From NCBI GenBank assembly GCA_050250255.1, contig JBFWOZ010000024.1, forward strand, positions 1-44,590: a stretch of DNA of 44,590 nucleotides. Direction: 5' to 3'. The translations under genes were made by a program, and so were the position numbers. The notes under the pieces were generated by a model, which made no database searches, had not been told where the DNA came from, and saw nothing but the letters and a program-made list of their open reading frames with translations. Below, in pieces: positions 25,850-44,465 of this stretch; the first letter of the stretch is position 1, and every line of letters starts with the position of its first letter. The DNA comes from Bdellovibrionales bacterium (GTDB lineage Bacteria; Bdellovibrionota; Bdellovibrionia; Bdellovibrionales; DASUEL01).

Positions 25850-25865
25850 ACTAAATCCACAAAAC

Positions 25866-27491: not shown

Positions 27492-27498
27492 CCTTTAG

Positions 27499-27813
27499 TT
27501 AGTTATAATAAAAAGTTGTTAACTGAGCCTGTGGTAAAGTTCGGGAACGAATGATACTTCGATGTTTTTTTTGTTCAGGAAAACCGAAGCTAATCATTTG
27601 GCCAAACAAACTCCCAATGACTCCGCCAACACCCGCGCCCGCAAGTGCTGAAACAATAGGGCCTGCAGAAATAAACGGTGCTAAACCTGGAATTGCTAAA
27701 GCTCCGACTCCCGCCAACCATCCGAGAACTCCGCCTATCGCTGCACCTGTAGTCAAACCAGAAGTTTTTTCTTCTGCTGCAACCTTAAAATTCCAATTGT
27801 GCTTATAAGACAT
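27499..27813 (-). CDS. Truncated paralog of the general stress membrane protein at 36101-36709
   Basis: GAAIGGVLGWLAGVGALAIPGLAPFISAGP glycine zipper; lacks both flanking domains. Confidence 0.7.
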   Translation of the reverse strand: MSYKHNWNFKVAAEEKTSGLTTGAAIGGVLGWLAGVGALAIPGLAPFISAGPIVSALAGAGVGGVIGSLFGQMISFGFPEQKKHRSIIRSRTLPQAQLTTFYYN

Positions 27814-27830
27814 ATTCCCTCCCTTTCTTC

Positions 27831-28178
27831 CTATCTGGGATAAGAAGAATTCACTTTTAATTTGTCTAAAATTGCATAGTCCTTTGCAATTTTTTGTACC
27901 GACATAACAACATGCTCCGCTTCATTTGAATCTTCAACATAACCACTCAGGGAAACAAGACCTGATTGGGGAATGGCAATTGTGATATTTTGGGCCTGAA
28001 TTGAAAGCGACTGATCCTGCCACAACTCTGCTCGAAGTTGGCGAATGAGATTTTCTTCAGAAGACAAATGATGATTCATTCGAACCTGAGTCGTTGAAGC
28101 TGTTAGCTTATATGGAAAATCTGCCAACACATTCATGCTTGCTGCTATAAAAATTAACAATGAAACCACGAACAGCAT
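27831..28178 (-). CDS. BON-domain protein
   Basis: Signal peptide; LSIQAQNITI, GLVSLSGYVE. Confidence 0.75.
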   Translation of the reverse strand: MLFVVSLLIFIAASMNVLADFPYKLTASTTQVRMNHHLSSEENLIRQLRAELWQDQSLSIQAQNITIAIPQSGLVSLSGYVEDSNEAEHVVMSVQKIAKDYAILDKLKVNSSYPR

Positions 28179-28219
28179 GGATATCTCCTCTTGAGTTAAA
28201 ACACGACACCCATGATAAG

Positions 28220-28235
28220 TGCTAAAGATATGCCA
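28220..28235 (-). promoter_or_regulatory. Putative sigma54 promoter
   Basis: TGGCATATCTTTAGCA (GG-N10-GC) upstream of 28178. Confidence 0.65.
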
Positions 28236-28325
28236 AAATAAAGTGGCGTCAAATTGCAGATGAAAGGGAGAGGGAGGTAAATTTACACTTTTAAAAAATA
28301 AATGGGGTTTATTTACTTAAAACAG

Positions 28326-28355
28326 AAAAAGATAGGGGCCCCGAAGCCCCTATCT
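28326..28355 (-). terminator. Intrinsic terminator
   Basis: AGATAGGGGC...GCCCCTATCT hairpin with T-run on the minus strand. Confidence 0.75.
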
Positions 28356-28381
28356 AACAGAATAACTTTGTGAAAACAAAG

Positions 28382-28621
28382 TTATTTCCTACGCGACATC
28401 ATTCCGACGGCGATTCCTACAGCTGCACACGCAGCTGCCACGCTGACTGCAATTCTAACGGGGTGTTTCTTAGCGTAATTAACAGAGGTTCCATATACGT
28501 TGGTGAGCGCTTCTTGAGCGGTATGCAAATACTCACCAGCCGCATCAAACACATGAGAGTCAACTGCCTTTAAGCGTGCGCCTGAAGAATGACCTTGGTC
28601 ATGAATAGCATTTTGTTCCAT
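28382..28621 (-). CDS. ElaB/YqjD (DUF883)-like tail-anchored protein
   Basis: VNYAKKHPVRIAV...VGMMSRRK C-terminal TM; GGAGG RBS before ATG 28621. Confidence 0.7.
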   Translation of the reverse strand: MEQNAIHDQGHSSGARLKAVDSHVFDAAGEYLHTAQEALTNVYGTSVNYAKKHPVRIAVSVAAACAAVGIAVGMMSRRK

Positions 28622-28678
28622 GCCTCCTCCTTCCCGTGAAAAAATGTTTTTCTTCCGTATCACATATCCACAAGACTA

Positions 28679-28786
28679 CTACATTTGTGGACGTCCAATT
28701 TCATCTTCAACCGCTCGGTCCCATACACGGCGGATATCACCTTTCACTTCGTTCCACTTACCTTTGATGAGATTTTCATTAATCAT
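28679..28786 (-). CDS. Short CsbD/YjbJ-like protein (35 aa, not in ORF track)
   Basis: MINENLIKGKWNEVKGDIRRVWDRAVEDEIGRPQM; AAGGAG RBS. Confidence 0.65.
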   Translation of the reverse strand: MINENLIKGKWNEVKGDIRRVWDRAVEDEIGRPQM

Positions 28787-28824
28787 GCACTTCTCCTTTA
28801 CTACAGGCCAACGCCCACTCTTGT

Positions 28825-28840
28825 AGCAACGAGTGGGCCA
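28825..28840 (-). promoter_or_regulatory. Putative sigma54 promoter
   Basis: TGGCCCACTCGTTGCT upstream of the CsbD-like ORF. Confidence 0.65.
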
Positions 28841-28961
28841 AGTTCAGAGAGGCATTAATTTCACTTGAGACACTCACAAGATACTGCACGTACATTTTTT
28901 CCCCATCGTAATTTCGAGTGTTGTAAATCTCAAAAAGATCCTTTATTTCCTAGTAGTAAGG

Positions 28962-31700
28962 ATGAAAAAATTAAATCAGCTTTTACACACGACAGAGCCA
29001 GCGCAACTGATGGGGATTTTTGCCTTCGTGTGTTTTTATTCCTTACTTGCTTGGTGGGGCATTTCTTCCTCGATTCGTTCAAACATTGAGTCGCGTCTCG
29101 CGATAGAAGCCGCGCGTATTGAATCTGCCTTTCAAGACCGAATCGAACAACACGTCAATACGCTAGCCTTTACCCAAGCCCATTTTGATGGAATCGCCCC
29201 AACACCCGCAGGCTTTGAAGCTTACATTTCCAAATCAGAAGCTCAAAAACGTCATCCCGGAACTGTAGGCATTGGAATGATTCAAATCGTCACACCTTCC
29301 GAATACTCAGCGGTGACACAGAAAATATTGGCTCGTGTTCCTGTAGCTAAACCCCATAAGCCGGAACCCAAAGACCATTACGCTCTTGTTACCATGATTG
29401 AACCAATGTACTGGAGAAACGAAAAAATTCTTAACCAAGATTTATTTGCGCAATCTGAACTCAAAAAAAGCATTGAGCACTCGATTCAAACGGGTCAGCC
29501 AACAATGAGCACTCCGATTCAACTCGCGGATATGTCTGAGGCAAAAAAATCGGCTTCTTTCTTCATCTTCTTGCCCTTTTATAAAAACTCACGCCAAGAA
29601 ATCTCCACACTCCTCAAAGCTGGTGACTACTCTTCGCTAATTGGTGTTTTGTATCACCAAGTAGGGGCCAGTACTTTGTTTGAAGATATTTTTGGCTCAC
29701 CTTCTTTAAAAAATGACCGGATTAACTTTTATTTCAAATCGACTGACCCACGGAATCCACAAACTTATTATGATCGCTTTGACCTCATGCTCAATGAACA
29801 AATGTTCGACCTTAAAAGCGAAATTAAAAAGGAAATCACAGTTTTTGGGCAAAAGCTTCTTCTTGGCGTAGCCCCTCTTGATCGATTCTACACATTTTCA
29901 GATCTCTACCTCGCTCCCCTTGCAGCTTTTAGTATCTACTTTACCTCCCTTCTCCTCTTTTTCGTTTTGCGGACCAGCCAACGACAAATCCGTTTTGAAT
30001 CTGAGGCAAGAAGATCAGCCCATGAAGTTCAAAAAATCACCATAGAACGTGCCGAAGTACTAAATAAACTTCGCAAGCTTTCAAAAGCGATTTCTCAAGA
30101 GCTCGACATGGATCTCATTATAGACCACTTTATGGAATGCCTAAGGGCCTCAAATGTAGACGTTGCCATCTTGTACTTCAGTGGGCATGAGAACAAATCT
30201 TCAGCGCAGCTTCATAGTTTTTTTGGCGTAAGAGAAAACCAAGTTAATAAAGAAGTTGATAGCTTAGTTGTTCGCGAAGCTCTTGCTGGTGACATCAAAC
30301 TCCTTAAAACTGATTCTCGAAATAAAAATATTTATACAGAAATCTTTGGGAATAATAATCTCGTTGATTGGAGAATTAACTTTATCCCATCAAGAATTGC
30401 CGTAAACAGCGCATTTTTAATAGTTGGAAAACTTCAAGAGCCTGGGTTTAGAGAGATTGAACATGACTTTTTCGACAACGCGATAGCACAGCTAGGAATC
30501 GGTCTCGACAATGCAAAGCTTTACACTAAAGTCGATGAATCCAATAAATCAAAAAGCGCGTTTCTCGCAAATATGAGCCATGAAATTCGCACCCCTTTGA
30601 ATGCCATCATTGGTTTTTCAGAGATTCTCATGACCGAAGATTTAGATGCTCCTCAAAAACAAGCCATCGGCTCTACTCTTCAAAAAAATGGCCATCAGCT
30701 CACAAGAATTATCGACGATATCCTCGATCTTTCAAAAATCGAGGGTGGGAAAATGCATATTGAAAACCATCAAGTACGCTTAACTTCTTTGGTGCGTGAA
30801 CTACAATCCGCTATGACTTTAAGAGCTAAAGATAAAACAATTCAGCTTAATATAGAATGCACCAACCTCATTCCATCAATCATCATGACGGATGAAATCC
30901 GTTTAAAACAAATTCTTATGAACATTGTTGGAAATGCCATTAAATTTACAGATTCCGGTTCGGTAACACTCTCCCTCTCCGCGAGTCGTACCGAAAGTAA
31001 CGAAGTTCTTCTTCGATTCCTTGTGGCTGACACTGGAATTGGTATTTCTGATGAAGCTAAAGAAAACATCTTTAAACCCTTCTCACAAGCCGATAGCTCT
31101 AACACCCGCACCTACGGAGGCTCTGGTCTTGGCTTAGCGCTCAGCCGACGCTTGAGCCGCGAACTAGGAGGAGATGTTGTTCTCGTTAACTCTACAAAAG
31201 GAAAAGGGACAGTTTTCGAAATTTCCATTAACTGTGGCCATGACATCTCTACTGAAGAGTGGACAAAAGCTTCTTTTGATACTCCCTTTGAAAACATGAA
31301 CGATTTTTACGGGAACTCAAACATCAAGCTCAATGGCATTAATTTGCTCCTGGTTGAAGACTCAGAAGACAACCAGGACATATTTAAATATTTTCTTGAA
31401 GAGCGCGGTGCAAATGTTGATATCGTCGATAATGGCCTTGCCGCCGTTGAGCAGGCCTTTGAACACGAATATGATGCCATACTGATGGACATACAATTAC
31501 CTAAGCTGGACGGCAAAGAAGCGACTCGACGGATACGTCAAAGAGGCTTTTGGAGGCCGATCATAGCTTTAACGGCTCACGCCATGTCAGAAGAAAGAGA
31601 AAGCTGCATTCGTGCAGGTTGCAATGGACAGATCACCAAACCCATCTCAGGGACAGAACTTATCGCTCGAGTTGGCGAATACGTAGGGAGGACACAATGA
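28962..31700 (+). CDS. Hybrid sensor histidine kinase (CHASE-like, GAF-like, HisKA, HATPase, REC)
   Basis: FLANMSHEIRTPLN, NAIKFT, DTGIG, GSGLGL, LVEDSEDN, LMDIQLP. Confidence 0.95.
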   Translation: MKKLNQLLHTTEPAQLMGIFAFVCFYSLLAWWGISSSIRSNIESRLAIEAARIESAFQDRIEQHVNTLAFTQAHFDGIAPTPAGFEAYISKSEAQKRHPGTVGIGMIQIVTPSEYSAVTQKILARVPVAKPHKPEPKDHYALVTMIEPMYWRNEKILNQDLFAQSELKKSIEHSIQTGQPTMSTPIQLADMSEAKKSASFFIFLPFYKNSRQEISTLLKAGDYSSLIGVLYHQVGASTLFEDIFGSPSLKNDRINFYFKSTDPRNPQTYYDRFDLMLNEQMFDLKSEIKKEITVFGQKLLLGVAPLDRFYTFSDLYLAPLAAFSIYFTSLLLFFVLRTSQRQIRFESEARRSAHEVQKITIERAEVLNKLRKLSKAISQELDMDLIIDHFMECLRASNVDVAILYFSGHENKSSAQLHSFFGVRENQVNKEVDSLVVREALAGDIKLLKTDSRNKNIYTEIFGNNNLVDWRINFIPSRIAVNSAFLIVGKLQEPGFREIEHDFFDNAIAQLGIGLDNAKLYTKVDESNKSKSAFLANMSHEIRTPLNAIIGFSEILMTEDLDAPQKQAIGSTLQKNGHQLTRIIDDILDLSKIEGGKMHIENHQVRLTSLVRELQSAMTLRAKDKTIQLNIECTNLIPSIIMTDEIRLKQILMNIVGNAIKFTDSGSVTLSLSASRTESNEVLLRFLVADTGIGISDEAKENIFKPFSQADSSNTRTYGGSGLGLALSRRLSRELGGDVVLVNSTKGKGTVFEISINCGHDISTEEWTKASFDTPFENMNDFYGNSNIKLNGINLLLVEDSEDNQDIFKYFLEERGANVDIVDNGLAAVEQAFEHEYDAILMDIQLPKLDGKEATRRIRQRGFWRPIIALTAHAMSEERESCIRAGCNGQITKPISGTELIARVGEYVGRTQ

Positions 31701-31996
31701 TGGAAGATGAAGTTTTTATTCCAAAAGAAGCACGGCTTCAGTATCTAGAACGAAGAAAGAAAGATCTCGTAACACTCAGAGAAAATCTAAATGAGAAAAA
31801 GGATGACGAATTCAAAAGAATTGGCCATCAGCTCAAAGGAAATGCCTCTACGTTTGGATTTCTAGACCTCGAAAAAATCGCCATCAATTTGGAAAAGGTC
31901 GGGGAAAGTAAAAATTGGGCGGAAGCTGAGACCCAGTTAAAACTTTTTGAAAATTGGATCTCTGTAGAGTCTGGGAAAGCCTCTCAATACAAATAG
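31697..31996 (+). CDS. Hpt phosphotransfer protein
   Basis: GHQLKGNASTFGF; ATGA overlap with the kinase stop codon. Confidence 0.9.
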   Translation: MMEDEVFIPKEARLQYLERRKKDLVTLRENLNEKKDDEFKRIGHQLKGNASTFGFLDLEKIAINLEKVGESKNWAEAETQLKLFENWISVESGKASQYK

Positions 31997-32005
31997 AACT
32001 TCATC

Positions 32006-32034
32006 AAAGGGGCGCTTTAAATAACGCCCCTTTT
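32006..32034 (+). terminator. Intrinsic terminator
   Basis: AAAGGGGCG...CGCCCCTTTT. Confidence 0.7.
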
Positions 32035-32134
32035 CATAATCAGTACCAATAAAGTACACACGTACCTAACTGTCCACATTTTCACCCCAACTCCCGTTAT
32101 TTCAGTTTCTATAACCCATAATTTCCATTTTTGT

Positions 32135-32150
32135 TGGCACAAGAACTGCT
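32135..32150 (+). promoter_or_regulatory. Putative sigma54 promoter
   Basis: TGGCACAAGAACTGCT upstream of 32236. Confidence 0.7.
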
Positions 32151-32235
32151 CCTATGTCCTTGAAAGAAGTTTCACACAAATAGAAGTAAACAATCACTTG
32201 CTAGGATAAAGGCAAGAGAACAATGAGGGGGTATT

Positions 32236-32775
32236 ATGAACATGGAAGCTGCTGTACCAAGAATGGATTTAAAATCGATGTACGACTATTTAGGGAGCGG
32301 ACTCTTTGCTGATAATAAGTTTAAATCTATCCTTTTGATTGAGGACGATCCTGATTTTGCTGCCGTTTTAAAATCGCATCTTGAAAGCCAACCTGGCATT
32401 CGAGTGAAAGTGGCTAAGGATCCGTATGAAGCCACTGATGCGCTTACAGAGAAGTGTTATGACCTCGTCATTGCCGACTGGGCCTTACCACCTTTTAACG
32501 CTTCAAATGCGATTCAACAGGCAGATAACTTTTTAAGAATGGATCCTCTTCTCCCATTAAAATGGACGTACCAACGTGTGCCCGTTCTTTTAATTTCAGG
32601 TCAGGATCACACAAAAGAATTAAAGCACTTGAAGCCATTCGAACATTTTGAATTGGTGCAATTTCTCTTAAAGCAATCAGGCATTCGTAAGATTGCAAAC
32701 AAAGTTAAGAGACTACTCGGGCACAAGCGGTTGGGTAAGATTCCAAAGCTTGCTTTGGCTCCTACCACTCACTAG
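32236..32775 (+). CDS. Single-domain response regulator (REC)
   Basis: ILLIEDD, YDLVIADW, VPVLLISG, FLLK. Confidence 0.82.
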   Translation: MNMEAAVPRMDLKSMYDYLGSGLFADNKFKSILLIEDDPDFAAVLKSHLESQPGIRVKVAKDPYEATDALTEKCYDLVIADWALPPFNASNAIQQADNFLRMDPLLPLKWTYQRVPVLLISGQDHTKELKHLKPFEHFELVQFLLKQSGIRKIANKVKRLLGHKRLGKIPKLALAPTTH

Positions 32776-32790
32776 AAAAGGAGTGAAGAT

Positions 32791-33045
32791 ATGAAGGTCT
32801 ATTTTCATAGAAAAGTATTGTGGCGTTTAAATAGAAGAAAACGCCCTTCCGAAGCACAACTCTCCACATGGGAAGGTGAAGGTGGCTGGGTCAACTCCGC
32901 GTCCCAGCAGCAAAGTTTTTTTGAACGAGTAAGCGATTACTTGCGAGTAAAAATAGCAATGCTTTCTAAGATGTATAAGGATTTGGCGTCTGCATGGACC
33001 CCCTCACCCAATCGCAGCATGACATCTCAATCGTACAACCCTTAA
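32791..33045 (+). CDS. Small hypothetical protein
   Basis: AAGGAG RBS; WEGEGG motif; followed by a terminator. Confidence 0.6.
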   Translation: MKVYFHRKVLWRLNRRKRPSEAQLSTWEGEGGWVNSASQQQSFFERVSDYLRVKIAMLSKMYKDLASAWTPSPNRSMTSQSYNP

Positions 33046-33066
33046 TCTTCATCACTTTTTAAAAGT

Positions 33067-33103
33067 AAAATACCTCCATCTTCCTCGATGGGGGTATTTT
33101 TTT
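33067..33103 (+). terminator. Intrinsic terminator
   Basis: AAAATACCTCCATC-N6-GATGGGGGTATTTTTTT. Confidence 0.75.
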
Positions 33104-33123
33104 ATGTGGACATGCTGAGGAAA

Positions 33124-33270
33124 GGTTGGAGGCTTGGGTTTATCGTTTGAGGTTTGTCGTACCGTTAGAGGTTTATAGTTTGGGCTTCCGGTTGAGCATC
33201 GTTGAGGCTTAGACCTCAAACCTTTAAACGGTACCTCGGACCTCAAACGATAAACCCCAAACCTCCAACC
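33124..33270. repeat. 147-bp imperfect palindrome (long hairpin; possible sRNA or MITE/REP-like element)
   Basis: Arm GGTTGGAGGCTTGGGTTTATCGTTTGAGGT...GTACCGTT pairs with AACGGTAC...ACCTCAAACGATAAACCCCAAACCTCCAACC. Confidence 0.8.
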
Positions 33271-33289
33271 ATCATGGCGTAGCTTCTAT

Positions 33290-33322
33290 AAAAAAAGCCG
33301 GTAGGTCTCCCACCGGCTTTTT
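33290..33322. terminator. Bidirectional intrinsic terminator
   Basis: AAAAAAAGCCGGT-N8-ACCGGCTTTTT. Confidence 0.8.
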
Positions 33323-33354
33323 ACTTTTCGCTTAACTACCTGAGAGATTTCCAA

Positions 33355-34752
33355 TTAGTTCAATTGATAATCCTGGACTCGTCGATAAAGAGTTTTTCTA
33401 TCGATCGAAAGATCGCGTGCGGTGCGATCTTTCGCGCCATTATTAATGGTCAAAGCGTATTGAATATACTTATTGATCACTTCATTGAGAGGAAGAATCT
33501 TGTTTTTTGGCAGATTGAAGTTATCTTCATCCGACGCAGAAGATCCTTGGCTCATCAACGTTGGCTCATCAAGGTCCATCGTTAAGTCTTTTTTCTCGAT
33601 AACTCCTGTCGTTGCAAGAACGACGGCGCGTTCAATAACGTTTTGAAGCTCTCGTACGTTCCCCTTCCAAGTATTTTTTAATAAATACTCCATGGCATCC
33701 TTCGAAAATCCTGTCGCTTTTGAATTATTCAAAGCTGCATATTTTCTTAGAAAGAATTCTGAGAGAGGCAAAATATCTTCAATGCGATCCGCCAACGAAG
33801 GAACATGTATAGGAATGACGTTAAGCCGAAAAAATAAATCTTCTCGGAAGCGCTTCTCTAAGACTTCCTTTTTCAAATTTTTATGGGTTGCTGAAATAAC
33901 ACGCACATTAATATCACGATATTGGTTTTCACCAATTCGTTTAATTTTTTGCTCTTGTAAAACACGTAAAAGTTTTGCCTGAAGCGGAAGACTTAAATCA
34001 CCAATCTCATCTAAGAAGATAGTCCCCTTATTTGCCTCCTCAAAAAGACCAATTTTTTTATCAATTGCTCCCGTAAAAGAGCCTTTTGCATAACCAAAAA
34101 GTTCAGATTCGAGAAGATTCTCTGGTATCGCTGTACAGTTAATTGCGACAAACGTAAATTTCTTACGGTTACTCAGTTGGTGAATTGTTTTTGCGATCAC
34201 TTCTTTTCCAGAACCGCTTTGACCTGAAATCAAAATGCTGGAGCTGGAATTTGCTACACGCTTTGCAAGATCCAAAGTTTTTAGAAACTGTGGGCTCTTA
34301 CCTATGATGCCGTCGACACTCGTACCTTCGCTGCTACTAACGACCGCTTTTAAAACATTATTCTCAGCTTGCACTTTATGGAGATAAAGAGCTCTCTCTA
34401 CAGAGACGAGAAGTTGAGGAAAATGAAGAGGCTTCACGACAAAATCATAAGCGCCTGCTTTAATCGCCTCAATCGCCATCTCAGATGTGCGATGAGAGGT
34501 CATCAAAATGATAGGTGCCGTGATCCCTTCTTCCTTAAGAGTTGTTGTTAACTCAAGGCCCGACATATTTGGCAATTTATAATCAGTTAAAATAATATCA
34601 CACGACTGCGGATCTTTTTTGAGCTTGTCTAAAGCATCTTCCGCATCTGTGAAAGCTTTAACTTCATACCCTTTGGGACGGAAAAATCCCACTATGACGT
34701 CTTGAATATCTATATCATCATCAATTACGAACAATCTTGTTTTTGTTTTCAT
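33355..34752 (-). CDS. Sigma54-dependent response regulator (NtrC/AtoC family: REC-AAA+-Fis HTH)
   Basis: GQSGSGKE, ESELFG..KGSFTGA, LDEIG, FREDLFFRL, WKGNVREL, LSIDRKTLYRR; start MKTKT (34752). Confidence 0.96.
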   Translation of the reverse strand: MKTKTRLFVIDDDIDIQDVIVGFFRPKGYEVKAFTDAEDALDKLKKDPQSCDIILTDYKLPNMSGLELTTTLKEEGITAPIILMTSHRTSEMAIEAIKAGAYDFVVKPLHFPQLLVSVERALYLHKVQAENNVLKAVVSSSEGTSVDGIIGKSPQFLKTLDLAKRVANSSSSILISGQSGSGKEVIAKTIHQLSNRKKFTFVAINCTAIPENLLESELFGYAKGSFTGAIDKKIGLFEEANKGTIFLDEIGDLSLPLQAKLLRVLQEQKIKRIGENQYRDINVRVISATHKNLKKEVLEKRFREDLFFRLNVIPIHVPSLADRIEDILPLSEFFLRKYAALNNSKATGFSKDAMEYLLKNTWKGNVRELQNVIERAVVLATTGVIEKKDLTMDLDEPTLMSQGSSASDEDNFNLPKNKILPLNEVINKYIQYALTINNGAKDRTARDLSIDRKTLYRRVQDYQLN

Positions 34753-34883
34753 ACAAATATAACTAGCACCTCCACTTTTATCACACAAGAACTATCTGAG
34801 ACAATTTTCCTCGTTCAAAAATTAAAAATGCCCCAGATTTTTTTTCGAGCGTGGCCAAATGCACCATAGCCATTTTTTAAGAG

Positions 34884-34899
34884 TGGTATATGTTTTGCT
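34884..34899 (+). promoter_or_regulatory. Putative sigma54 promoter
   Basis: TGGTATATGTTTTGCT upstream of the DUF1328 gene. Confidence 0.7.
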
Positions 34900-34939
34900 C
34901 TATTCGTTATCGATTTTAAAATAATCAACTGGAGGTTCT

Positions 34940-35122
34940 ATGTTACAAGCAGCATTAATGTTTTTCGTTTTAGCACTCGTTGCAATTCTTTTTGGCGCAA
35001 CCGGTTTTGCAGGTGTGTCAATGGAAATTGGTCGCACTCTCCTCGTAGTGTTTCTTGTGCTCGCTGCTATTAGCTTTATCGGTAGCCTAATCACTGGGCG
35101 TCGAACGAATTATCTACCGTAG
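34940..35122 (+). CDS. DUF1328 (YtjA/UPF0391) small membrane protein
   Basis: MLQAALMFFVLALVAILFGATG...IGRTLLVVFLVL. Confidence 0.88.
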   Translation: MLQAALMFFVLALVAILFGATGFAGVSMEIGRTLLVVFLVLAAISFIGSLITGRRTNYLP

Positions 35123-35280
35123 TTGTACATAAAAGTTTTCATGGACGTGAGAGGCGGTATCCCCTCATCCCACTGACTCTCACGTCCTTATTTTAGGCCG
35201 CGTCATCCCTCCCGTCTGGGGCATTCTTCCACATATCAACATTTCATTCAAAAATCTCCTCTAGAAGTTTTTTTAAAATG

Positions 35281-35296
35281 TGGCAGTCACTTTGCA
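35281..35296 (+). promoter_or_regulatory. Putative sigma54 promoter
   Basis: TGGCAGTCACTTTGCA upstream of 35360. Confidence 0.7.
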
Positions 35297-35359
35297 ACTA
35301 TGAATACTAACCTATGTTTTAAATTTGATTTAAGGAAATAACAATTTAAGGAGAACAAA

Positions 35360-35671
35360 ATGGCTAATACACAATCTCAAACACCAAATTCGAATAACCA
35401 AAAAAATTATTCATCACAACAAGGGCAACAAAGACAGCGGGGTAAAGACGACTTTTCACAATCTTCGTTATCATCACAATCTTCACAAAGAGATTCATCT
35501 TGGAATAAAAATGACGATGTAGGTTCTGGCAATCAAAAAAGCGCAGGCCAAAAAGGCGATAGAGATATGTCCGCTCAAAAAGGAAAATCACAAACAGATC
35601 GCGAACAAACTCCACGCACTTTTAACGATGACGACGATACAAATCGCGATGCGACTGAGTACATGGGGTAA
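35360..35671 (+). CDS. Hydrophilic low-complexity (Q/S/N/D-rich) protein
   Basis: AAGGAG RBS; almost no hydrophobic residues. Confidence 0.7.
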   Translation: MANTQSQTPNSNNQKNYSSQQGQQRQRGKDDFSQSSLSSQSSQRDSSWNKNDDVGSGNQKSAGQKGDRDMSAQKGKSQTDREQTPRTFNDDDDTNRDATEYMG

Positions 35672-35691
35672 CTAACCAAAGGGAGACCGTT

Positions 35692-36090
35692 ATGGGAGAA
35701 CTTAAAAAAATTGAAATCTTTTTATTAAGCTTATTTATTTTTGTTCTTGCAGCCGTGTCTCACTCTTACGCTGAAGCAGCTTCAAATGGGCAGAGCGTTG
35801 ATTCAGGAAACGGTGGAAGATCGTCAAATGCCAATAGTGGCGCAGACAAAATCGATCCCGCAATGAACGAAACTGATTCCATTATCGTAGAACGAATTCG
35901 ACAAGAAATTTTGAATGAACCTACGCTCTCTGTAACCGCTTTAAACGTAGAGATAGAAAGCTCCAATGGGAAAGTGACCGTTAGGGGTCTTGTCGAATCG
36001 CCTGAAGATAAAATGATAGTTATTGAAAAAGCAAAATCAGTTGCTGGCGCTCAGAACGTAACTGACGAAGTTATGATTCGCTCAGAATAA
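35692..36090 (+). CDS. BON-domain protein
   Basis: DSIIVERIRQEI, LSVTALNVEI, GKVTVRGLV. Confidence 0.88.
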   Translation: MGELKKIEIFLLSLFIFVLAAVSHSYAEAASNGQSVDSGNGGRSSNANSGADKIDPAMNETDSIIVERIRQEILNEPTLSVTALNVEIESSNGKVTVRGLVESPEDKMIVIEKAKSVAGAQNVTDEVMIRSE

Positions 36091-36100
36091 AGGAGATGAT

Positions 36101-36709
36101 ATGAAAGAAAATTACAAAATTGTTTTTGGAATTTATAAGATGAAAGCGGATGCGGAAAGAGCGGTTGATACTTTTAAAGCTGATGGTTTTCGCTCCTCAG
36201 ACATCTCCGTCTTAGTTCCTAACTCTCATTCAGCAGAAGCTCCTCAAATGGTCCACGAAAACAGTACAAAAGCTCCGGAAGGAGCGATCACCGGCGCCGG
36301 AACTGGCGTAGTGATTGGTGGAGCATTAGGTTGGCTCTTAGGTGCAGGAGTTATTGCAATTCCAGGCATAGGTCCACTTTTAGCTGCAGGCCCTCTTGTC
36401 GCGGCTTTGGCTGGTGCTGGGATCGTAGGAACTGTTGGCGGTTTAAGTGGCGCGTTGATTGGTGTTGGTATTCCTGAATATGAAGCTAAGCGCTATGAAG
36501 GTTATCTCAGTAAAGGTGGCGTTTTGCTATCTGTACACGCGGATAATGCAGAATGGGTTTCCAAGGCTAAGCATATTCTAGACATGACTGGTGCGAGTGA
36601 TATTTCTACCAGTCGTGAAGCAGAACCAGAATGGAAAGACGTCTCTGTACCACCCCAGTACAATAGAATTCCTAATACGGGTATTTATCCAAATACTCCG
36701 ATACTTTGA
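36101..36709 (+). CDS. General stress membrane protein (glycine-zipper)
   Basis: GFRSSDISVL, TKAPEGA, IPGIGPLLAAGP, GIPEYEAKRYE, GGVLLSVH. Confidence 0.85.
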   Translation: MKENYKIVFGIYKMKADAERAVDTFKADGFRSSDISVLVPNSHSAEAPQMVHENSTKAPEGAITGAGTGVVIGGALGWLLGAGVIAIPGIGPLLAAGPLVAALAGAGIVGTVGGLSGALIGVGIPEYEAKRYEGYLSKGGVLLSVHADNAEWVSKAKHILDMTGASDISTSREAEPEWKDVSVPPQYNRIPNTGIYPNTPIL

Positions 36710-36722
36710 ATGTAAACGTCAC

Positions 36723-36759
36723 AAAGCCATCTTACGTCAACGTAAGATGGCTTTTTTTT
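36723..36759 (+). terminator. Intrinsic terminator
   Basis: AAAGCCATCTTACG-TCAA-CGTAAGATGGCTTTTTTTT. Confidence 0.8.
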
Positions 36760-36781
36760 AAACAATAAATGGAGGTTCCAA

Positions 36782-37435
36782 ATGTTTAATTTAAAAAAAT
36801 GTCTACTTACTTGCTCTGTTCTACTTGCCGCTACCACAACCTTTGCACAAGAGGCTGGAACTATTGAAGCCAACGCAGAAAGAGAAAGCTCTTCACCGGA
36901 GCGTTTTTTTCGTCGAATCATTGCCGTAGGCTCTCTCACAAATGCCGGATATGAAGGTGGCGACTCTTCACGTTATGAAAAACCAAATGGTTATAACGTG
37001 GGGATCCTCCTTGATCTACTCGGAATGAATAAATTGGTTCTCGAGACCGGCGCTCTGTATAGACAGCTCGGCACAACAATGGAAAACGGTCTTGGCGAAA
37101 ATCACTTAACGGCAAATTATATTTCTGTACCTGCAACGGCGAAATATTATTTTAGTGGTCAAGAAAGAAACTCGCTATACCTAAAGGCTGGGGCCATGGG
37201 GTCAACCCTCGTTTCAAATAACACAGCTTATGTCACATCTAGCACAACAAAAATTGGAGCACGCACGTGGGAAACCGCTCTTATCGGTGGGCTTGGCGCA
37301 AAACTAGTTCTCAATGAAACTACAGATCTTGTTTTGGAAGGCAGTTATACACGGGCTTTAGATAGCGTTTTCGAAGATGTAGAAGTGTATCGCTCAGATT
37401 ATAGCGGTACATTAGGAGTCGCGGTTAATTTGTAA
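36782..37435 (+). CDS. Outer-membrane beta-barrel protein
   Basis: Signal peptide; amphipathic strands (LETGALY, YISVPATAKYY, LEGSY). Confidence 0.75.
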   Translation: MFNLKKCLLTCSVLLAATTTFAQEAGTIEANAERESSSPERFFRRIIAVGSLTNAGYEGGDSSRYEKPNGYNVGILLDLLGMNKLVLETGALYRQLGTTMENGLGENHLTANYISVPATAKYYFSGQERNSLYLKAGAMGSTLVSNNTAYVTSSTTKIGARTWETALIGGLGAKLVLNETTDLVLEGSYTRALDSVFEDVEVYRSDYSGTLGVAVNL

Positions 37436-37451
37436 GCTATATTTCGAGACT

Positions 37452-37489
37452 AAAAAATATCCAAATTCTTTAGAATTTGGATATTTTTT
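37452..37489. terminator. Bidirectional terminator hairpin
   Basis: AAAAAATATCCAAATTCT-TT-AGAATTTGGATATTTTTT between convergent genes. Confidence 0.7.
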
Positions 37490-37853
37490 AAAGATAGTCA
37501 GGAGTTACAGTCATTTCATTATTAACGAGACGTACACCTGGAAGGGCCTCAACGAGACGTACCACTCTTTCCAATTCTGCGTCGCTACGGACTAAGCCAT
37601 TTAAAGTAATCACTCCATCATCAGAGTAAATCTTTAAATTTTGAGCCTGCACTGACAGAGCATCGTCTTTAATAAACTCTCCTCTAATTCTTTCCACAAT
37701 TCCTTCATCATCGTCCACAGAATGTAGAGAGCCGAAATCCGTAGAACTAGATTTCGGAAAAAAAGAACTATGAGAAGAAGCTCCGTAACTTGAATATGAT
37801 ATCAAAGTCGAAAAACTAGTTGCGAGCGCGAACGCATACAAGAACTTAGTCAT
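37488..37853 (-). CDS. BON-domain protein
   Basis: LSVQAQNLKI, GVITLNGLV, PGVRLVNNEMTV; AAGGAG RBS before ATG 37853. Confidence 0.88.
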   Translation of the reverse strand: MTKFLYAFALATSFSTLISYSSYGASSHSSFFPKSSSTDFGSLHSVDDDEGIVERIRGEFIKDDALSVQAQNLKIYSDDGVITLNGLVRSDAELERVVRLVEALPGVRLVNNEMTVTPDYL

Positions 37854-37889
37854 TATTTTCTCCTTGAAAAGAAACTCAAACTTAAAAAT

Positions 37890-37905
37890 TGCTAAATACA
37901 TGCCA
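37890..37905 (-). promoter_or_regulatory. Putative sigma54 promoter
   Basis: TGGCATGTATTTAGCA upstream of 37853. Confidence 0.65.
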
Positions 37906-38025
37906 CCGCTCGTCAGCCGAGGAGGAGAAAGTGTGCGACCTGTCATAGAGTGAGAGGAAAATCGCCCCGACGTTTAATCTCATCCCTCCTAAAAAGGTTC
38001 ATCAGGCCCTAGAAAGACAACAGGA

Positions 38026-38041
38026 TGGCGTTCTTTTTGCT
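38026..38041 (+). promoter_or_regulatory. Putative sigma54 promoter
   Basis: TGGCGTTCTTTTTGCT upstream of 38074. Confidence 0.68.
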
Positions 38042-38073
38042 TCTTAATAAAAACTAATAACAAGGAGGGTTGC

Positions 38074-38667
38074 GTGACAAGAACAACAGAAAGAAAAGTG
38101 GGAGAACAGAATATTATTTCTCTTATTATTGAGCACCACAACATTCTCCGCGAATCTATTGATGTTTTGAAAAATGATGCTTCTTCTTCCGTAGAGAAGA
38201 AAAAACATGCGTTACAATTTACAGCAACATTAAAAGTACATGCGAAAGCAGAGGAAAACACCCTCTACGAACGTATGTTAAAAGATGGAAAACTTCGCAT
38301 GAAAGTTTATGAAGGCGATGAGGAACACAATATCGCAGACCAATTAGTGACAGAGTTGGAACTTCTTAACTTTCCCCTTAACTGGGACGAACAAATAGAA
38401 GCAAAAGCGAAAGTACTTGCGGAAATTGTAGAACATCACATTGACGAAGAAGAGGATGAGGTATTTCCCGCAGTAGCCGATCTCATCGCGGAGTCGGAGC
38501 TTAAAAAATTAGGAGCTGAGTACTTCAAAGAGTGTAGGAACGAAATGGACATTCTTGAAGAAAGCAAACCTTACTCCACTATCTGGAAAGAGGATCTCAC
38601 TCGCTCTCTTTACTCCGGGCTTCTCGGAGATCGCGAGCGTCTGCGCCAACAGGGATTAACTCAGTAG
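38074..38667 (+). CDS. Hemerythrin/HHE cation-binding protein
   Basis: EHH, HAKAEE..LY, EEH, HHIDEEEDEVFP. Confidence 0.9.
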   Translation: MTRTTERKVGEQNIISLIIEHHNILRESIDVLKNDASSSVEKKKHALQFTATLKVHAKAEENTLYERMLKDGKLRMKVYEGDEEHNIADQLVTELELLNFPLNWDEQIEAKAKVLAEIVEHHIDEEEDEVFPAVADLIAESELKKLGAEYFKECRNEMDILEESKPYSTIWKEDLTRSLYSGLLGDRERLRQQGLTQ

Positions 38668-38686
38668 AGCGAAGAGGTAAAAAGAG

Positions 38687-38878
38687 ATGCTTAGAAGAAT
38701 TCGATATGCAATCCTGGGAGTAGGACATATAGCACAAGTAGCCATGCTTCCAGGACGTATTATTGTACTTTCAAGTAAGAAAAATATTGGAGTTGAGTAC
38801 CCTAGACCCTCACAAAAGAAAATTTATAAAGGTGTGGATGAGCCAGAAGTTATTCAAGTTTCCAGCCCACATTCTTAA
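38687..38878 (+). pseudogene. Remnant of a Gfo/Idh/MocA oxidoreductase
   Basis: IRYAILGVGHIAQVAMLP is a Gfo-type Rossmann start, but the ORF is only 63 aa. Confidence 0.6.
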
Positions 38879-38889
38879 AAGTTATAAAA

Positions 38890-39240
38890 CTAAATTGCTC
38901 TAGGCTGTTTACTCATATTTTGAATAAACTCATCGCGCAATTCATTCTCATGAGTTCTTTGACTCAAACGATCAGTGGAAAGCTTAGGATTCACATCTTC
39001 GGTATAAGACGTGCCGATACCAGTTCGTGAAAGAGTTATTCCGTATCCGGTTGCTAAAGCGACTAAACTCATCATGCCGAGAGCCATAAAAGATGTGAGA
39101 TAATTGTTCCAGGTGACGGCACCCATTTCATCTAACTGCAAGGTGATCTCTGCGAGACTCATAATAACGGCGCCACAAAACAACACAGCTCCAATAAAAT
39201 AGCTCGTAGCCGCTAGCATTAATGTTGAAATACGGATCAT
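38890..39240 (-). CDS. Two-TM membrane protein (YqjE-like position)
   Basis: Two hydrophobic helices; directly downstream of an ElaB-like ORF. Confidence 0.6.
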   Translation of the reverse strand: MIRISTLMLAATSYFIGAVLFCGAVIMSLAEITLQLDEMGAVTWNNYLTSFMALGMMSLVALATGYGITLSRTGIGTSYTEDVNPKLSTDRLSQRTHENELRDEFIQNMSKQPRAI

Positions 39241-39261
39241 AACATCGCTCCTTTAGGTTGA

Positions 39262-39429
39262 TTAACTATTTTGGAAAATGAGACCTGCAACAAAACCTAT
39301 CACTGCTAATCCTATCGCTGTAAGGACAGGATGAATGCGGGTAAAACGAGAAGATTTCTTCATTGTTCGATCTGTAACGCGTCGTGCGCTTAAATAATAA
39401 TCATTTAGGTTCATCGTTTGTTCCAACAT
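39262..39429 (-). CDS. Small ElaB/DUF883-like tail-anchored protein (55 aa, not in ORF track)
   Basis: MLEQTMNLNDYY...FTRIHPVLTAIGLAVIGFVAGLIFQNS; AGGAGG RBS. Confidence 0.65.
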   Translation of the reverse strand: MLEQTMNLNDYYLSARRVTDRTMKKSSRFTRIHPVLTAIGLAVIGFVAGLIFQNS

Positions 39430-39455
39430 CTCTACCTCCTTTTCTTTTTATAATG

Positions 39456-39471
39456 TGCAAGGGTGAGACCA
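39456..39471 (-). promoter_or_regulatory. Putative sigma54 promoter
   Basis: TGGTCTCACCCTTGCA upstream of 39429. Confidence 0.65.
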
Positions 39472-39594
39472 CTTACATGCCCTACACGAAGCGACTTAAA
39501 CATCAGAAGTCCCATTTCTACCCAATCCTCTCGAGGCAAAACACCCCGAGCTCCATTTGTGAGACTGTCAGACGCAATTTATTGAGACTGAAGC

Positions 39595-39610
39595 TGGTAC
39601 GCCACTTGCT
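39595..39610 (+). promoter_or_regulatory. Putative sigma54 promoter
   Basis: TGGTACGCCACTTGCT upstream of 39757. Confidence 0.68.
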
Positions 39611-39756
39611 CTATCCCCAAAGCATCAAGCTCATTCACATCACCGAGGGCGTTCCCACCGGATGTTTTGATTATTCAAAAAATCGGGGGTGCGCCCTTTC
39701 CCTTTTTAGGGTGTAGAGAGAGTGAAACAAAAACTATGTTTAAGGAGAACAAACTA

Positions 39757-40320
39757 ATGAAAAAAATTATGGCTTTATCGCTACTCGCTATGGGGTTTTC
39801 TGTTGGATGCAGCTCAACACAACGTGCCGACACAAAATTAGCGGAGACTATGGCTCCCGAAGTAAAAAGTGCAGCCAACGTAACAGATGCGACTTTTGTG
39901 ACTGAAGTGAGCTTCCAAAAAGGTTCATCACAACTAACACCAGCTGCAAAATCCAGAATTAGCGAACTCATTCGTGATGCTCGTGGCTCAGGGGAAATTG
40001 AAGATATAAAAGTGATCTCTTGGGCAGACCAAGAATATCCCTCTGAAGAAGCAAAAAAACTTTCCTCGGAGCAGCGCAACCTCGCCGATGCACGCAACAG
40101 AGAAATTCGCAGACAAATTGCGGCAGTCGATGGTGCCATTGATGTTGATGCCTATAACATGGCAGAACGTCCAAATGCGCTCTCTCGTCTCGTTGGAACA
40201 GAAAACGCGAAGTTGAAAAAATCTTTAGAAGTAGCGGGACTACCAACAACTGCATCGAAGAATAAAGTTGTCTCAGGCAAAGCTTCAAAAGCAATGCTTC
40301 TTGTTATTATGGATATGTAA
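39757..40320 (+). CDS. Lipoprotein with OmpA-like domain
   Basis: Lipobox SVGC; VSFQKGSSQLT, LADARN; AAGGAG RBS. Confidence 0.7.
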   Translation: MKKIMALSLLAMGFSVGCSSTQRADTKLAETMAPEVKSAANVTDATFVTEVSFQKGSSQLTPAAKSRISELIRDARGSGEIEDIKVISWADQEYPSEEAKKLSSEQRNLADARNREIRRQIAAVDGAIDVDAYNMAERPNALSRLVGTENAKLKKSLEVAGLPTTASKNKVVSGKASKAMLLVIMDM

Positions 40321-40474
40321 TTCGGTAATAAGTTAAAAACCTTTGCCCTCTTGCTCTTCCGAGCGGAGGGCAATTTTATTGAAGATGATAGCCGGGGTAA
40401 AAATCTGATTTTACTATAGATTTATCTCCCTCTTAATTGTGTTGAAATCCAAGAAAGAGTGTAGTTTAGATCAA

Positions 40475-42448: not shown

Positions 42449-42465
42449 TTTGCTAAAAGAAGGGA

Positions 42466-42867: not shown

Positions 42868-43117
42868 AATTGTTTATCTTCTTTGCTTTGGCACCAGCTC
42901 CCTCTGTGCCTTATTGCTTTTTCGTGCTTATCGTAAAAGCCAAACTCGACTCCTTTTTTGGAGTTCACTTTGTTTTTCAGGTTTTGCACTCAACAATGGA
43001 TTTTTATTTTTAGATATTGTCGTCTTTCCAGAAGTGTATTTATCTGTTTGGCGGCTCGTACCCGCTCTTTTGGGTGTAAGTGCCTTAATCTATGGCTTGA
43101 TTAGAAAGGATGCATAA
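42860..43117 (+). CDS. Small 3-TM membrane protein (DUF5985-like)
   Basis: VYLLCFGTS..CALLL.RAY...RLLFWSSLCF...NN. Confidence 0.75.
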   Translation: MAEIVYLLCFGTSSLCALLLFRAYRKSQTRLLFWSSLCFSGFALNNGFLFLDIVVFPEVYLSVWRLVPALLGVSALIYGLIRKDA

Positions 43118-43376: not shown

Positions 43377-43442
43377 AGCACTAACGCGGACCTGGACTTT
43401 TTGCCTGTGTATTTATGAAACAACAAGGCCGAAAGGAAGGGC

Positions 43443-44378: not shown

Positions 44379-44460
<82 letters not shown>

Positions 44461-44465
44461 CGATA

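Follow-up and report, generated by a model that had tools for sequence, protein, structure and literature searches.

The window, a 44,590-nucleotide stretch of a Bdellovibrionales genome, holds a cluster of small stress-type and envelope genes around an NtrC-family activator (Table 1). The first-pass annotation had named BON/OsmY, CsbD, DUF1328, ElaB-like, hemerythrin and YhfW-like genes here. Pfam confirmed the BON (three genes in the cluster, one of them weak, E 0.001), DUF1328, hemerythrin and YhfW-like labels. CsbD was found as a 35-codon remnant and not as an intact gene, and the ElaB-like label was not confirmed: the 28382..28621 protein had no match in Pfam or NCBIfam, and its likeness to ElaB/YqjD is our presumption, as is the ElaB-like name of the short protein within 38890..39429. 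The YflT-like Pfam match in the 35360..36709 unit was below the cut-off. Besides csbD, the glycine-zipper gene is broken, and so is a dehydrogenase fragment. Assignment of the hemerythrin to the NCBIfam PA2171 family was rejected (58 bits against a cut-off of 190). An Rfam scan of 25000-44590 returned a tRNA as its sole match.

Table 1 Features of the cluster and stress-type genes elsewhere in the genome. Site centres are given in bp relative to the sigma-54 motif; last six rows, contig and position.
Feature	Position	Strand	Evidence
YhfW-like FAD oxidoreductase with Rieske domain, last gene of the unit predicted from 28235	25866..27491	-	Pfam DAO E 1e-43, Rieske 4e-13
Truncated glycine-zipper protein, 104 aa vs ~200, resembles part of YflT-like family	27499..27813	-	phmmer to full-length relatives E 1e-23
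BON-domain protein (weak)	27831..28178	-	Pfam BON E 0.0011; clusters with other BON proteins
Sigma-54 motif TGGCATATCTTTAGCA, 41 nt before BON gene	28220..28235	-	17.7 bits
Candidate activator site, centre -46 from 28235 motif	28273..28289	.	9.9 bits
Small protein, C-terminal hydrophobic anchor	28382..28621	-	cluster of 20 relatives
CsbD remnant, 35 codons, then two TAG codons	28679..28786	-	Pfam E 6e-4, below cut-off
Sigma-54 motif TGGCCCACTCGTTGCT, 38 nt before csbD remnant	28825..28840	-	16.9 bits
Candidate activator site, centre -57	28889..28905	.	11.9 bits
Hybrid sensor kinase CHASE-HisKA-HATPase-REC, candidate input	28962..31700	+	Pfam
Stand-alone Hpt protein, GHQLKG motif, candidate phospho-donor	31697..31996	+	Pfam Hpt E 3e-9
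Weak palindrome, centre -56	32071-32087		4.9 bits
Sigma-54 motif TGGCACAAGAACTGCT, before single-domain receiver gene	32135..32150	+
Single-domain receiver protein, may act in feedback or as phosphate sink	32236..32775	+	Pfam Response_reg E 4e-10
NtrC-family activator, 465 aa	33355..34752	-	Pfam REC-Sigma54_activat-HTH_8
Three candidate activator sites between activator and DUF1328	34797..34866	.	12.9, 7.6, 12.9 bits
Sigma-54 motif TGGTATATGTTTTGCT, 40 nt before DUF1328	34884..34899	+	17.7 bits
DUF1328 (YtjA-like) small membrane protein, head-to-head with activator	34940..35122	+	Pfam E 6e-9
Candidate activator site, centre -56	35217..35233	.	15.2 bits
Sigma-54 motif TGGCAGTCACTTTGCA, 63 nt before three-gene unit	35281..35296	+	14.3 bits
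Hydrophilic 103-aa protein, BON protein, YflT-like glycine-zipper protein	35360..36709	+	Pfam
Terminator of three-gene unit	36723-36754
Outer-membrane beta-barrel, behind terminator, without own motif	36782..37435	+
BON-domain protein	37488..37853	-	Pfam E 1e-14
Sigma-54 motif TGGCATGTATTTAGCA	37890..37905	-	16.1 bits
Single palindrome, centred at -56 and -65 from the divergent promoters on either side	37953..37969	.	16.6 bits
Sigma-54 motif TGGCGTTCTTTTTGCT	38026..38041	+	14.1 bits
Hemerythrin/HHE protein	38074..38667	+	Pfam E 6e-12
Short ElaB-like protein (presumed) and membrane protein	38890..39429	-	phmmer to relatives E 1e-5 to 1e-3
Sigma-54 motif TGGTCTCACCCTTGCA	39456..39471	-	11.8 bits
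Weak and strong palindromes between two divergent promoters	39508..39548	.	6.7 and 14.8 bits
Sigma-54 motif TGGTACGCCACTTGCT, 146 nt before lipoprotein gene, structured leader	39595..39610	+
OmpA-like lipoprotein	39757..40320	+	Pfam OmpA E 0.004
CsbD-like, intact, without promoter and palindrome pair	C47:6000
BON, without promoter and palindrome pair	C6:61266
ElaB-like, without promoter and palindrome pair	C49:13236
Dps, without promoter and palindrome pair	C6:67783
YihY, without promoter and palindrome pair	C6:57577
Hemerythrin, without promoter and palindrome pair	C27:20082

Sigma-54 promoter motifs in the cluster

Nine TGG-N10-GC(A/T) motifs, mostly 30-90 nt before a start codon, had been proposed as sigma-54 promoters in the first-pass annotation. 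All nine are present at the positions and on the strands then reported, with GG and GC exactly 10 nt apart in a TGGCAC-N5-TTGCW-like context, and each is oriented to a gene start 26-146 nt downstream (seven of nine within 30-90 nt, the last two at 26 and 146 nt). The motif occurs in 9/13 intergenic upstream regions of the cluster vs a mean of 0.78 expected from 2000 dinucleotide shuffles of these regions (shuffle maximum 5). Spacers of 8, 9, 11 or 12 instead of 10 occurred in 0/13, and matches on the opposite strand, found in 5/13, coincide in position with promoters of head-to-head neighbours. A matrix derived from 89 sites on other contigs gave the nine motifs 11.8-17.7 bits.

The genome has one rpoN match (contig C61, E 6e-65), four HU/IHF genes, 13 sigma-54 activators and a large sigma-54 regulon, with 134 sites genome-wide by matrix. 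Sigma-54 promoters are not special to the cluster, because 95/1795 other upstream regions have strong sites vs 10.6 expected; within 12 kb, the cluster packs more such sites (nine) than any other part of the genome (the runner-up, on contig C6, has eight). Proteins behind many of the other sigma-54 promoters have signal-peptide-like starts. Motif statistics, the presence of rpoN and conservation upstream of orthologues support the prediction that the nine motifs are sigma-54 promoters.

A phased palindrome upstream of the promoters

A palindrome of 15-17 bp, GNGGMAAWTTKCCNC, lies 46-79 bp upstream of eight of the nine cluster promoters. Its matrix, built exclusively from 116 promoters in relatives, marked at >=8 bits 8/9 window promoters vs 15/125 other sigma-54 promoters of the genome (P 9e-6); the independent count is 6/7, because two promoter pairs share one site each. 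The spacing between palindrome and promoter keeps helical phase (R 0.77, n=84, with a period of 10.3 bp). Loci of other orders that had been held out showed the palindrome at 32/54 promoters (R 0.55), vs 1/54 equal stretches further upstream and 17/166 promoters elsewhere in the source genome. Each such promoter would have an upstream site on a fixed helical face, and the palindrome is the predicted binding site. The 32135 promoter is exceptional in having only a weak palindrome, and it serves a single-domain receiver and not a stress effector. The three sites within 34797..34866 are centred at -79, -57 and -26 from the 34884 motif, and the strong palindrome of 39508..39548 lies at -69 and -55 from its two promoters. 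A motif search of the 150 remaining sigma-54 promoters of the genome gave A/T-tract patterns only and no second palindrome.

The broken genes and the four ECF-type factors of the genome would fit a decaying cluster whose motifs are remnants or poised sites and whose genes are silent or rely on a sigma-70-family factor. We give this very little credence, as the sequence, spacing and phase of both motif and palindrome have been kept across orders, and sigma-70 consensus matches were not above chance (22 vs 26.9 expected). Among the 13 cluster upstream regions, judged by consensus sequences, there was no EcfG-, RpoS- or FliA-type motif (EcfG-type GGAAC-N16/17-CGTT in 0/13) and one loose SigB-like match.

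The activator and its recurrence in relatives

The activator had been described as a local REC-AAA+ protein with GSFTGA, and its REC, AAA+ and HTH motifs are all intact. As read from the sequence, the receiver has D57, T85 and K107; the AAA+ domain has Walker A at 177-184, GSFTGA at 224-229 and Walker B at 246-249, with the arginine finger region and sensor II also located; and the HTH contains DRKTLYR. A phospho-Asp REC, a Sigma54_activat domain and an HTH place it in the NtrC type (group I). GSFTGA is listed among variants compatible with activation in PMC4641369. The clade uses GAFTGA in 32/56 members and GSFTGA in 24/56, and the recognition helix DRKTLY is invariant in 35 aligned members. 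The activator is the genome's only member of this conserved clade, whose presence per genome was called with an HTH profile; a full-length search scoring six candidates per genome missed clade members. It fell below every NCBIfam cut-off of the named families AtoC, NtrC, ZraR, LuxO, PrsR and NtrX, the best score being that for AtoC (416 of 714 bits; LuxO, 351 of 800).

The predicted wiring recurs in many relatives; family-level genome searches returned the source genome alone. The activator lies <=8 kb from DUF1328 in 29/69 genomes, head-to-head in 22, and stays linked to its targets across orders. A sigma-54 motif precedes DUF1328 in 31/36 loci with the clade activator. Unlinked DUF1328 genes carry the motif in 15/28 cases where the clade is present vs 1/22 where it was not found, a contrast confounded by DUF1328 subtype and kinship; 13/28 have no motif despite the clade in the genome. 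The 31 DUF1328 genes without the motif showed no common promoter motif by eye. The 56 activator loci hold an Hpt gene in 35, a kinase directly before Hpt in only 6, a beta-barrel relative in 27 and an OmpA-like lipoprotein relative in 22. The palindrome occurs <=260 nt from the activator start in 39/56 loci (base rate 197/2820), and a sigma-54 motif upstream of the activator gene in 1/56; autoregulation is not separable here from a target-promoter role, because the activator upstream region is often common to a target promoter. The shared phased palindrome, conserved synteny, the palindrome before its own gene and clade uniqueness all point to the local activator as the probable driver, as the first-pass annotation had suggested.

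We think it quite improbable that a different one of the 13 activators is the main or an additional driver of the promoters; the most plausible would be the one on contig C52 (a low-oxygen-type regulon). Near relatives of the sister-clade activator are found on contig C52 of the same genome, and the C52 activator is a REC-AAA+-HTH protein adjoining USP and CBS genes. The sister clade has a related palindrome, TGAGACAAnTTGtCtCa; 10/28 of its promoters also score >=9 with the cluster matrix, and the sister matrix gives 17.1 to the -79 site before DUF1328, which has one sister-type half (TGAGAC), and 17.2 to the Ku promoter. A strict palindrome and promoter pattern (not matrix-based), counted over 251 genomes with 14 grey-zone genomes set aside, did not separate clade-positive from clade-negative genomes (excess per genome 1.58 in 123 vs 1.21 in 113, P 0.19). 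However, window half-sites carry the clade-type G in 13/16 and not the sister clade's A, while sister-clade sites are mostly A or C at this position (G in 4/38). The linkage of the local activator to its targets also argues against the C52 protein, as do the sister-clade loci, in which inspection by eye showed CBS, USP-like and PAS-kinase genes and not the stress module.

Predicted general-stress role

BON/OsmY, YflT, YhfW and the SRPBCC-dehydrogenase operon are target families of stress sigma factors. No RpoS, SigB, NepR or PhyR was found in the genome (99.2% complete): NepR had 0 matches and PhyR_sigma2 none over cut-off. Of seven sigma-70-family genes, six were scanned with NCBIfam (RpoD, FliA/WhiG, sigma-32 and three ECF-type), and none reached the RpoS or SigB/F/G cut-offs; the seventh is a short ECF-like frame. 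The first-pass annotation had spoken of a general stress or dormancy regulon. Gene content and the absence of these regulators favour the stress part, while dormancy found no direct support.

Outside the cluster, the palindrome was also present at Ku-LigD and cyanophycin synthetase and in a second stress cluster, which lies on C6. All three are predicted trans members of the regulon, together with an SRPBCC-Zn dehydrogenase-SDR operon and an OmpA protein. Six stress-type genes elsewhere in the genome had no full promoter and palindrome pair (Table 1). General-stress marker genes are thus present, but as a partial set, since Dps and some markers lie outside the candidate regulon.

The same promoters and activator might run, instead of a multi-stress response, a life-cycle or envelope programme (end of prey-bound growth, prey starvation, or a form that is resting or attached to a surface). 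The most conserved module members (DUF1328, beta-barrel, OmpA-like lipoprotein and a small secreted protein) are envelope or secreted proteins, which favours such a programme, as do the signal-peptide-like starts behind other sigma-54 promoters and the position of Dps and the intact CsbD-like gene outside the regulon. The two readings overlap, since RpoS and SigB act in starvation too. We nevertheless regard the life-cycle programme as unlikely: Ku-LigD, the SRPBCC-dehydrogenase operon, cyanophycin synthetase, BON, CsbD, YflT-like proteins and hemerythrin form a set seen under stress sigma factors, in part as described in PMC5437024 and PMC7083833.

Proposed mechanism

Since the genome has no recognisable stress sigma factor and the cluster has nine sigma-54 motifs with a shared palindrome, the stress genes are probably switched on through the neighbouring activator. 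We consider it likely, from sequence comparison, that the activator binds the palindrome and turns on small envelope and survival genes, the bacterium's likely general-stress programme. Sigma-54 holoenzyme would wait at the cluster promoters. A stress signal would reach D57 of the activator, most likely from at least one hybrid kinase via the stand-alone Hpt; the nearest candidate is the CHASE kinase at 28962, whose gene has no sigma-54 motif upstream, and other candidate hybrid kinases are a HAMP type at 40439 and a PAS-GAF type on contig C6. The phosphorylated activator would oligomerise on the palindrome and open the promoter through GSFTGA, and a lone palindrome between head-to-head promoters may serve both. 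Autoregulation could arise from the palindrome that precedes the non-sigma-54 promoter of the activator gene itself, and feedback from the sigma-54-driven single receiver. The regulon would fill the role played elsewhere by RpoS, SigB or EcfG.

To a wider joint reading we give, as a whole, an even chance: the general stress (and resting-state) response of Bdellovibrionota would be a fourth architecture, with a phosphorelay-controlled, ATP-driven sigma-54 activator clade as the master switch replacing RpoS, SigB or EcfG. This reading includes a defined palindrome read at some 20-25 promoters, among them Ku-LigD and cyanophycin storage, and a receiver-less copy, alone in some Bdellovibrio-like genomes, that would uncouple the response from phosphorylation. 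If true, sigma-54 would be the hub of a broad survival programme, gated by ATP and phosphorylation and with a very tight off state. The activator clade, binding-site matrix and target list make the hypothesis testable in a culturable clade-bearing member.

Comparison with known systems

The system is like NtrC, AtoC and ZraR in its order of domains, its -24/-12 promoters with an upstream dyad site, and its Walker and GAFTGA-type motifs, and the best PDB matches of the activator are Aquifex NtrC1/NtrC4-type structures (1ny5, 4l4u, 3dzd). It differs in the helix DRKTLY, the palindrome, the many scattered stress-type targets and the lack of an orthodox cognate kinase in most activator loci. The Vibrio LuxU-LuxO phosphorelay also joins a hybrid kinase, a stand-alone Hpt and a sigma-54 activator, a likeness known here from co-location, and the LuxO structure 5ep0 is a PDB match of the activator; the targets here are stress-type proteins, unlike the Qrr RNAs there. 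In P. aeruginosa, algB presumably adjoins PA5482, a parallel on which we found no paper.

General stress responses are ascribed to the alternative sigma-70-family factors RpoS, SigB and EcfG, and Bacillus SigB governs one such regulon. DUF1328 and CsbD are under RpoS control in Salmonella (PMC5437024), and csbD and ku-ligD are EcfG targets in Sphingopyxis (PMC7083833, EcfG-NepR-PhyR); the candidate regulon here resembles both regulons in its CsbD, DUF1328/YtjA and Ku-LigD targets. Unlike RpoS, EcfG and SigB regulons, it has sigma-54 motifs with an activator palindrome, no such sigma factor or partner switch was found, and Dps and some stress genes lie outside. The B. bacteriovorus sigma inventory, as given in PMC11209729, comprises RpoD, an RpoD homologue, FliA, RpoN and two RpoE-like factors, none of them RpoS, SigB or EcfG. 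No description of stress genes wired via a sigma-54 activator was found in the literature searched.

According to PMC11841059, NmpRSTU of Myxococcus xanthus has tandem GCGCA-N5-TGCGC NmpR sites and oxygen-use targets. Its multi-component phosphorelay, NtrC-like regulator, 15-bp dyad and multi-operon sigma-54 regulon with hemerythrin are similar to the present system; unlike it, the learnt motif here is GNGGMAAWTTKCCNC, and the targets include no oxidase or haem-synthesis genes. Compared by gene content only, NmpR as described there resembles the USP/CBS sister clade more than the local activator clade.

Predicted sigma-54 promoters of the cluster

The first-pass annotation had claimed nine -24/-12 motifs around an NtrC-family activator (33355..34752, minus strand), and all nine were found where it had placed them (28220..39610). 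TGG-N10-GCW in gene direction was present in 9/13 upstream intergenic regions of this cluster, versus a mean of 0.78 and a maximum of 5 in 2000 dinucleotide shuffles, and 0/13 regions carried TGG and GCW at other spacer lengths. The nine motifs scored 11.8-17.7 bits with a matrix built from 89 sites that lie on contigs other than that of the window. The genome (3.09 Mb, 95 contigs, 99.2% complete; no other genome of the family in a family-level search) contained a single rpoN in a profile search of its contigs, 13 strong matches to the Sigma54_activat domain and four HU/IHF genes. The window takes up all of contig C24. Protein relatives with a name belong to Bdellovibrionales, and the genome is accordingly assigned to Bdellovibrionota. 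Its 2884 genes come from a simple caller, so gene starts are approximate. The cluster was the densest 12 kb for sigma-54 sites in the genome (9 sites; the runner-up, on contig C6, has 8). Sigma-54 dependence of the cluster is highly probable. Outside the cluster, strong sites occurred in 95/1795 upstream regions (10.6 expected); the sigma-54 regulon is thus large, and the motif alone is uninformative on which activator acts. Many of these roughly 95 motifs precede proteins with signal-peptide-like starts.

Pfam confirmed DUF1328, BON, hemerythrin, DAO plus Rieske, a CHASE hybrid kinase, Hpt, a single receiver and the REC-AAA+-HTH protein in the cluster. Of the proposed gene labels, BON, DUF1328, hemerythrin and YhfW-like (DAO plus Rieske) stood, but csbD was a 35-codon remnant and the ElaB-like protein, so labelled by resemblance, had no family match.

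A palindrome accompanies the promoters

The palindrome GgGGaAaatTtCCcC, a candidate activator site, was learnt by expectation-maximisation from 116 promoter regions, all of relatives, with the window left out. At 8 bits or more it was present at 8/9 window promoters versus 15/125 other promoters of the genome (P 9e-6, overstated, as are all palindrome P values, because kin are not independent); as each of two head-to-head pairs has a single common site, this corresponds to 6/7 independent regions. Its centres, counted from the T of TGG, clustered at -46, -57, -68, -78 and -89, with a best period of 10.3 bp (R 0.77, 84 sites). In 18 loci of other orders, outside the training set, the palindrome was found at 32/54 sigma-54 promoters, versus 1/54 equal stretches further upstream (often coding, hence an imperfect control) and 17/166 promoters of our genome outside the cluster.

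The local activator and its clade

The local activator has D57, T85, K107, Walker A and B motifs, GSFTGA and an HTH ending DRKTLYR. A tree of 107 activators grouped it with a clade supported at 0.888 (FastTree), and DRKTLY is common to the aligned members of that clade; it was the sole clade member in its genome. The clade loop was GAFTGA in 32/56 and GSFTGA in 24/56; GSFTGA is among the functional variants listed in PMC4641369. The palindrome lay within 260 nt of the activator start in 39/56 loci (base rate 197/2820), which fits autoregulation, although a target often shares this region; a sigma-54 motif lay there in 1/56. When DUF1328 was fetched regardless of the activator, the motif was found in 15/28 cases from clade-positive genomes and 1/22 where the clade was not found, a contrast confounded by DUF1328 subtype and kinship, with six grey-zone genomes and one motif-less clade-negative gene (genome G024) left out and four loci lacking a gene call. 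Clade-positive and clade-negative genomes were not told apart by a strict composite pattern counted across 251 genomes (excess 1.58 clade-positive versus 1.21 clade-negative, P 0.19); the related sister-clade palindrome described below may explain this after the fact. We consider it probable that the local activator drives the cluster promoters. In genus g29, a receiver-less AAA+-HTH paralogue of about 320 aa with the same DRKTLY helix stands beside a DUF1328 or ElaB-like gene, and in several of these genomes it was the sole clade member found.

DUF1328 was present in 153/251 genomes of the order. Among the matches listed (149 for DUF1328, 116 for the activator, activator E up to 2.5e-137), both occurred in at least 69 genomes, within 8 kb of each other in 29/69 and head-to-head in 22. 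The 56 activator loci contained a receiver-type protein (41), Hpt (35), CsbD (34), DUF1328 (33, inflated because about half the loci were chosen for an adjacent DUF1328), a beta-barrel (27), a small secreted protein (24) and an OmpA-like lipoprotein (22), and a sigma-54 motif preceded DUF1328 in 31/36 cases in loci holding a clade activator. The module was found again in other orders of the phylum. DUF1328 proteins had two types of start, MLRAA and ML(N/S/Y)W (upstream regions of loci L076-L134 compared); the latter type almost never had a sigma-54 motif upstream.

By enhancer-binding-protein biology, D57 would be phosphorylated, the activator would oligomerise on the palindrome, and ATP-driven opening of poised sigma-54 holoenzyme would follow; more tentatively, hybrid kinases may feed the stand-alone Hpt. 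A kinase was present in 25/56 activator loci and directly before Hpt in only 6/56; the inputs may thus be several and dispersed, as would be expected if the response is a general one.

Candidate targets outside the window and possible cross-talk

Promoter and palindrome occurred together at further genes (see table). In Salmonella, RpoS controls DUF1328/YtjA and CsbD/YjbJ (PMC5437024), and EcfG targets in Sphingopyxis include csbD and ku-ligD (PMC7083833). Our genome has seven sigma-70-family genes (RpoD, FliA/WhiG, sigma-32 and four ECF-type). Six of them were scanned and reached no cut-off for RpoS or SigB, the seventh being a short ECF-like frame; NepR and PhyR were not found in this 99.2% complete assembly. 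The full pair was not found at six stress-type genes; an intact CsbD-like gene and Dps are among them. The regulon therefore covers only part of the stress set. We regard the cluster as a conserved sigma-54 regulon, real and well supported, for which there is a candidate binding site; its general-stress role is likely. The whole explanation, in which local activator, sigma-54 and palindrome make up a general-stress programme, is favoured with some reserve. A literature search, mostly outside subscription papers, returned no report of a sigma-54 general-stress regulon or of the local activator in Bdellovibrionota. In 11 term-searched supplementary files of PMC12316311, Bdellovibrionota appeared solely in an RpoN domain table, and a 2026 review (PMC13689555) mentions neither RpoN nor NtrC; related literature includes PMC11841059, PMC4676750, PMC11209729 and PMC13041383.

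The sister clade has the helix INRRTLYR, CBS, USP-like and PAS-kinase neighbours, and the palindrome TGAGACAAnTTGtCtCa, related to GgGGaAaatTtCCcC. At the discriminating position, module half-sites had G 116 and A 12 of 178 (partly so by construction), sister half-sites G 4 and A 18 of 38, and window half-sites G 13 and A 1 of 16. Both matrices fitted the -79 site upstream of DUF1328 as well as the Ku promoter, and some cross-talk is therefore possible. The activator on C52, together with the USP and CBS genes there, probably represents a low-oxygen-type regulon.

Locations of features in the window (W), other contigs of the genome (C) and loci of relatives (L)
Location	Feature	Remark
C6:2524	Ku-LigD	promoter + palindrome
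C6:61900-65500	YflT-like (by eye), small secreted, YqcI/YcgG cluster	promoter + palindrome
C47:7728	SRPBCC-zinc dehydrogenase-SDR operon	promoter + palindrome
C27:17133	cyanophycin synthetase	promoter + palindrome
C27:17133-21592	cyanophycin synthetase facing hemerythrin + cyanophycinase genes	head-to-head
C10	464-aa OmpA protein	promoter + palindrome
C49:12496	ElaB-like gene	promoter + palindrome
C19	CHASE2 kinase	promoter + palindrome
C52:425-9548	second activator	with USP and CBS genes
W 931-1227	gene	sigma-54 motif, sister-type TG(A/T)GAC/TGACA site
W 1414-4116, W 6191-8392	KatG and cation ATPase genes	sigma-54 motif at both; sister-type TG(A/T)GAC/TGACA site at KatG
W 8571-11855	MBL hydrolase, TSUP/TauE-like, two YeeE/YedE-like, rhodanese, ArsR-like	sulfur-handling cluster (labels by eye)
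W 27499	glycine-zipper protein	truncated
W 32791-33045	84-aa ORF, WEGEGG motif	absent from gene calls
W 33100-33285	long hairpin (z -10.4)	between two convergent terminators
W 38687-38878	gene fragment	one phmmer match, E 0.007
W 39621-39740	135-nt leader of OmpA-like lipoprotein	hairpin, then T-rich run
W 40439-43376	HAMP hybrid kinase, 133-aa protein, two DUF5985 genes	directly past cluster
W 44379-44452	tRNA
L104:4245-5231	receiver-less AAA+-HTH paralogue
L128:4159-5259	receiver-less AAA+-HTH paralogue
L129:2987-3958	receiver-less AAA+-HTH paralogue
L131:4179-5153	receiver-less AAA+-HTH paralogue
L206:7345-8301	receiver-less AAA+-HTH paralogue
L207:7070-8026	receiver-less AAA+-HTH paralogue

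Other features of the window

The gene fragment, which we take to resemble the start of a Gfo/Idh/MocA-type oxidoreductase, is a further sign of local gene decay. The leader of the OmpA-like lipoprotein had no Rfam match; its fold was more stable than those of 200 shuffled sequences (z -3.7), and it is possibly an attenuator or small RNA. The 84-aa ORF has four relatives in activator loci. The hairpin is a repeated, REP/MITE-like element, and about seven other contigs carry copies related to it.
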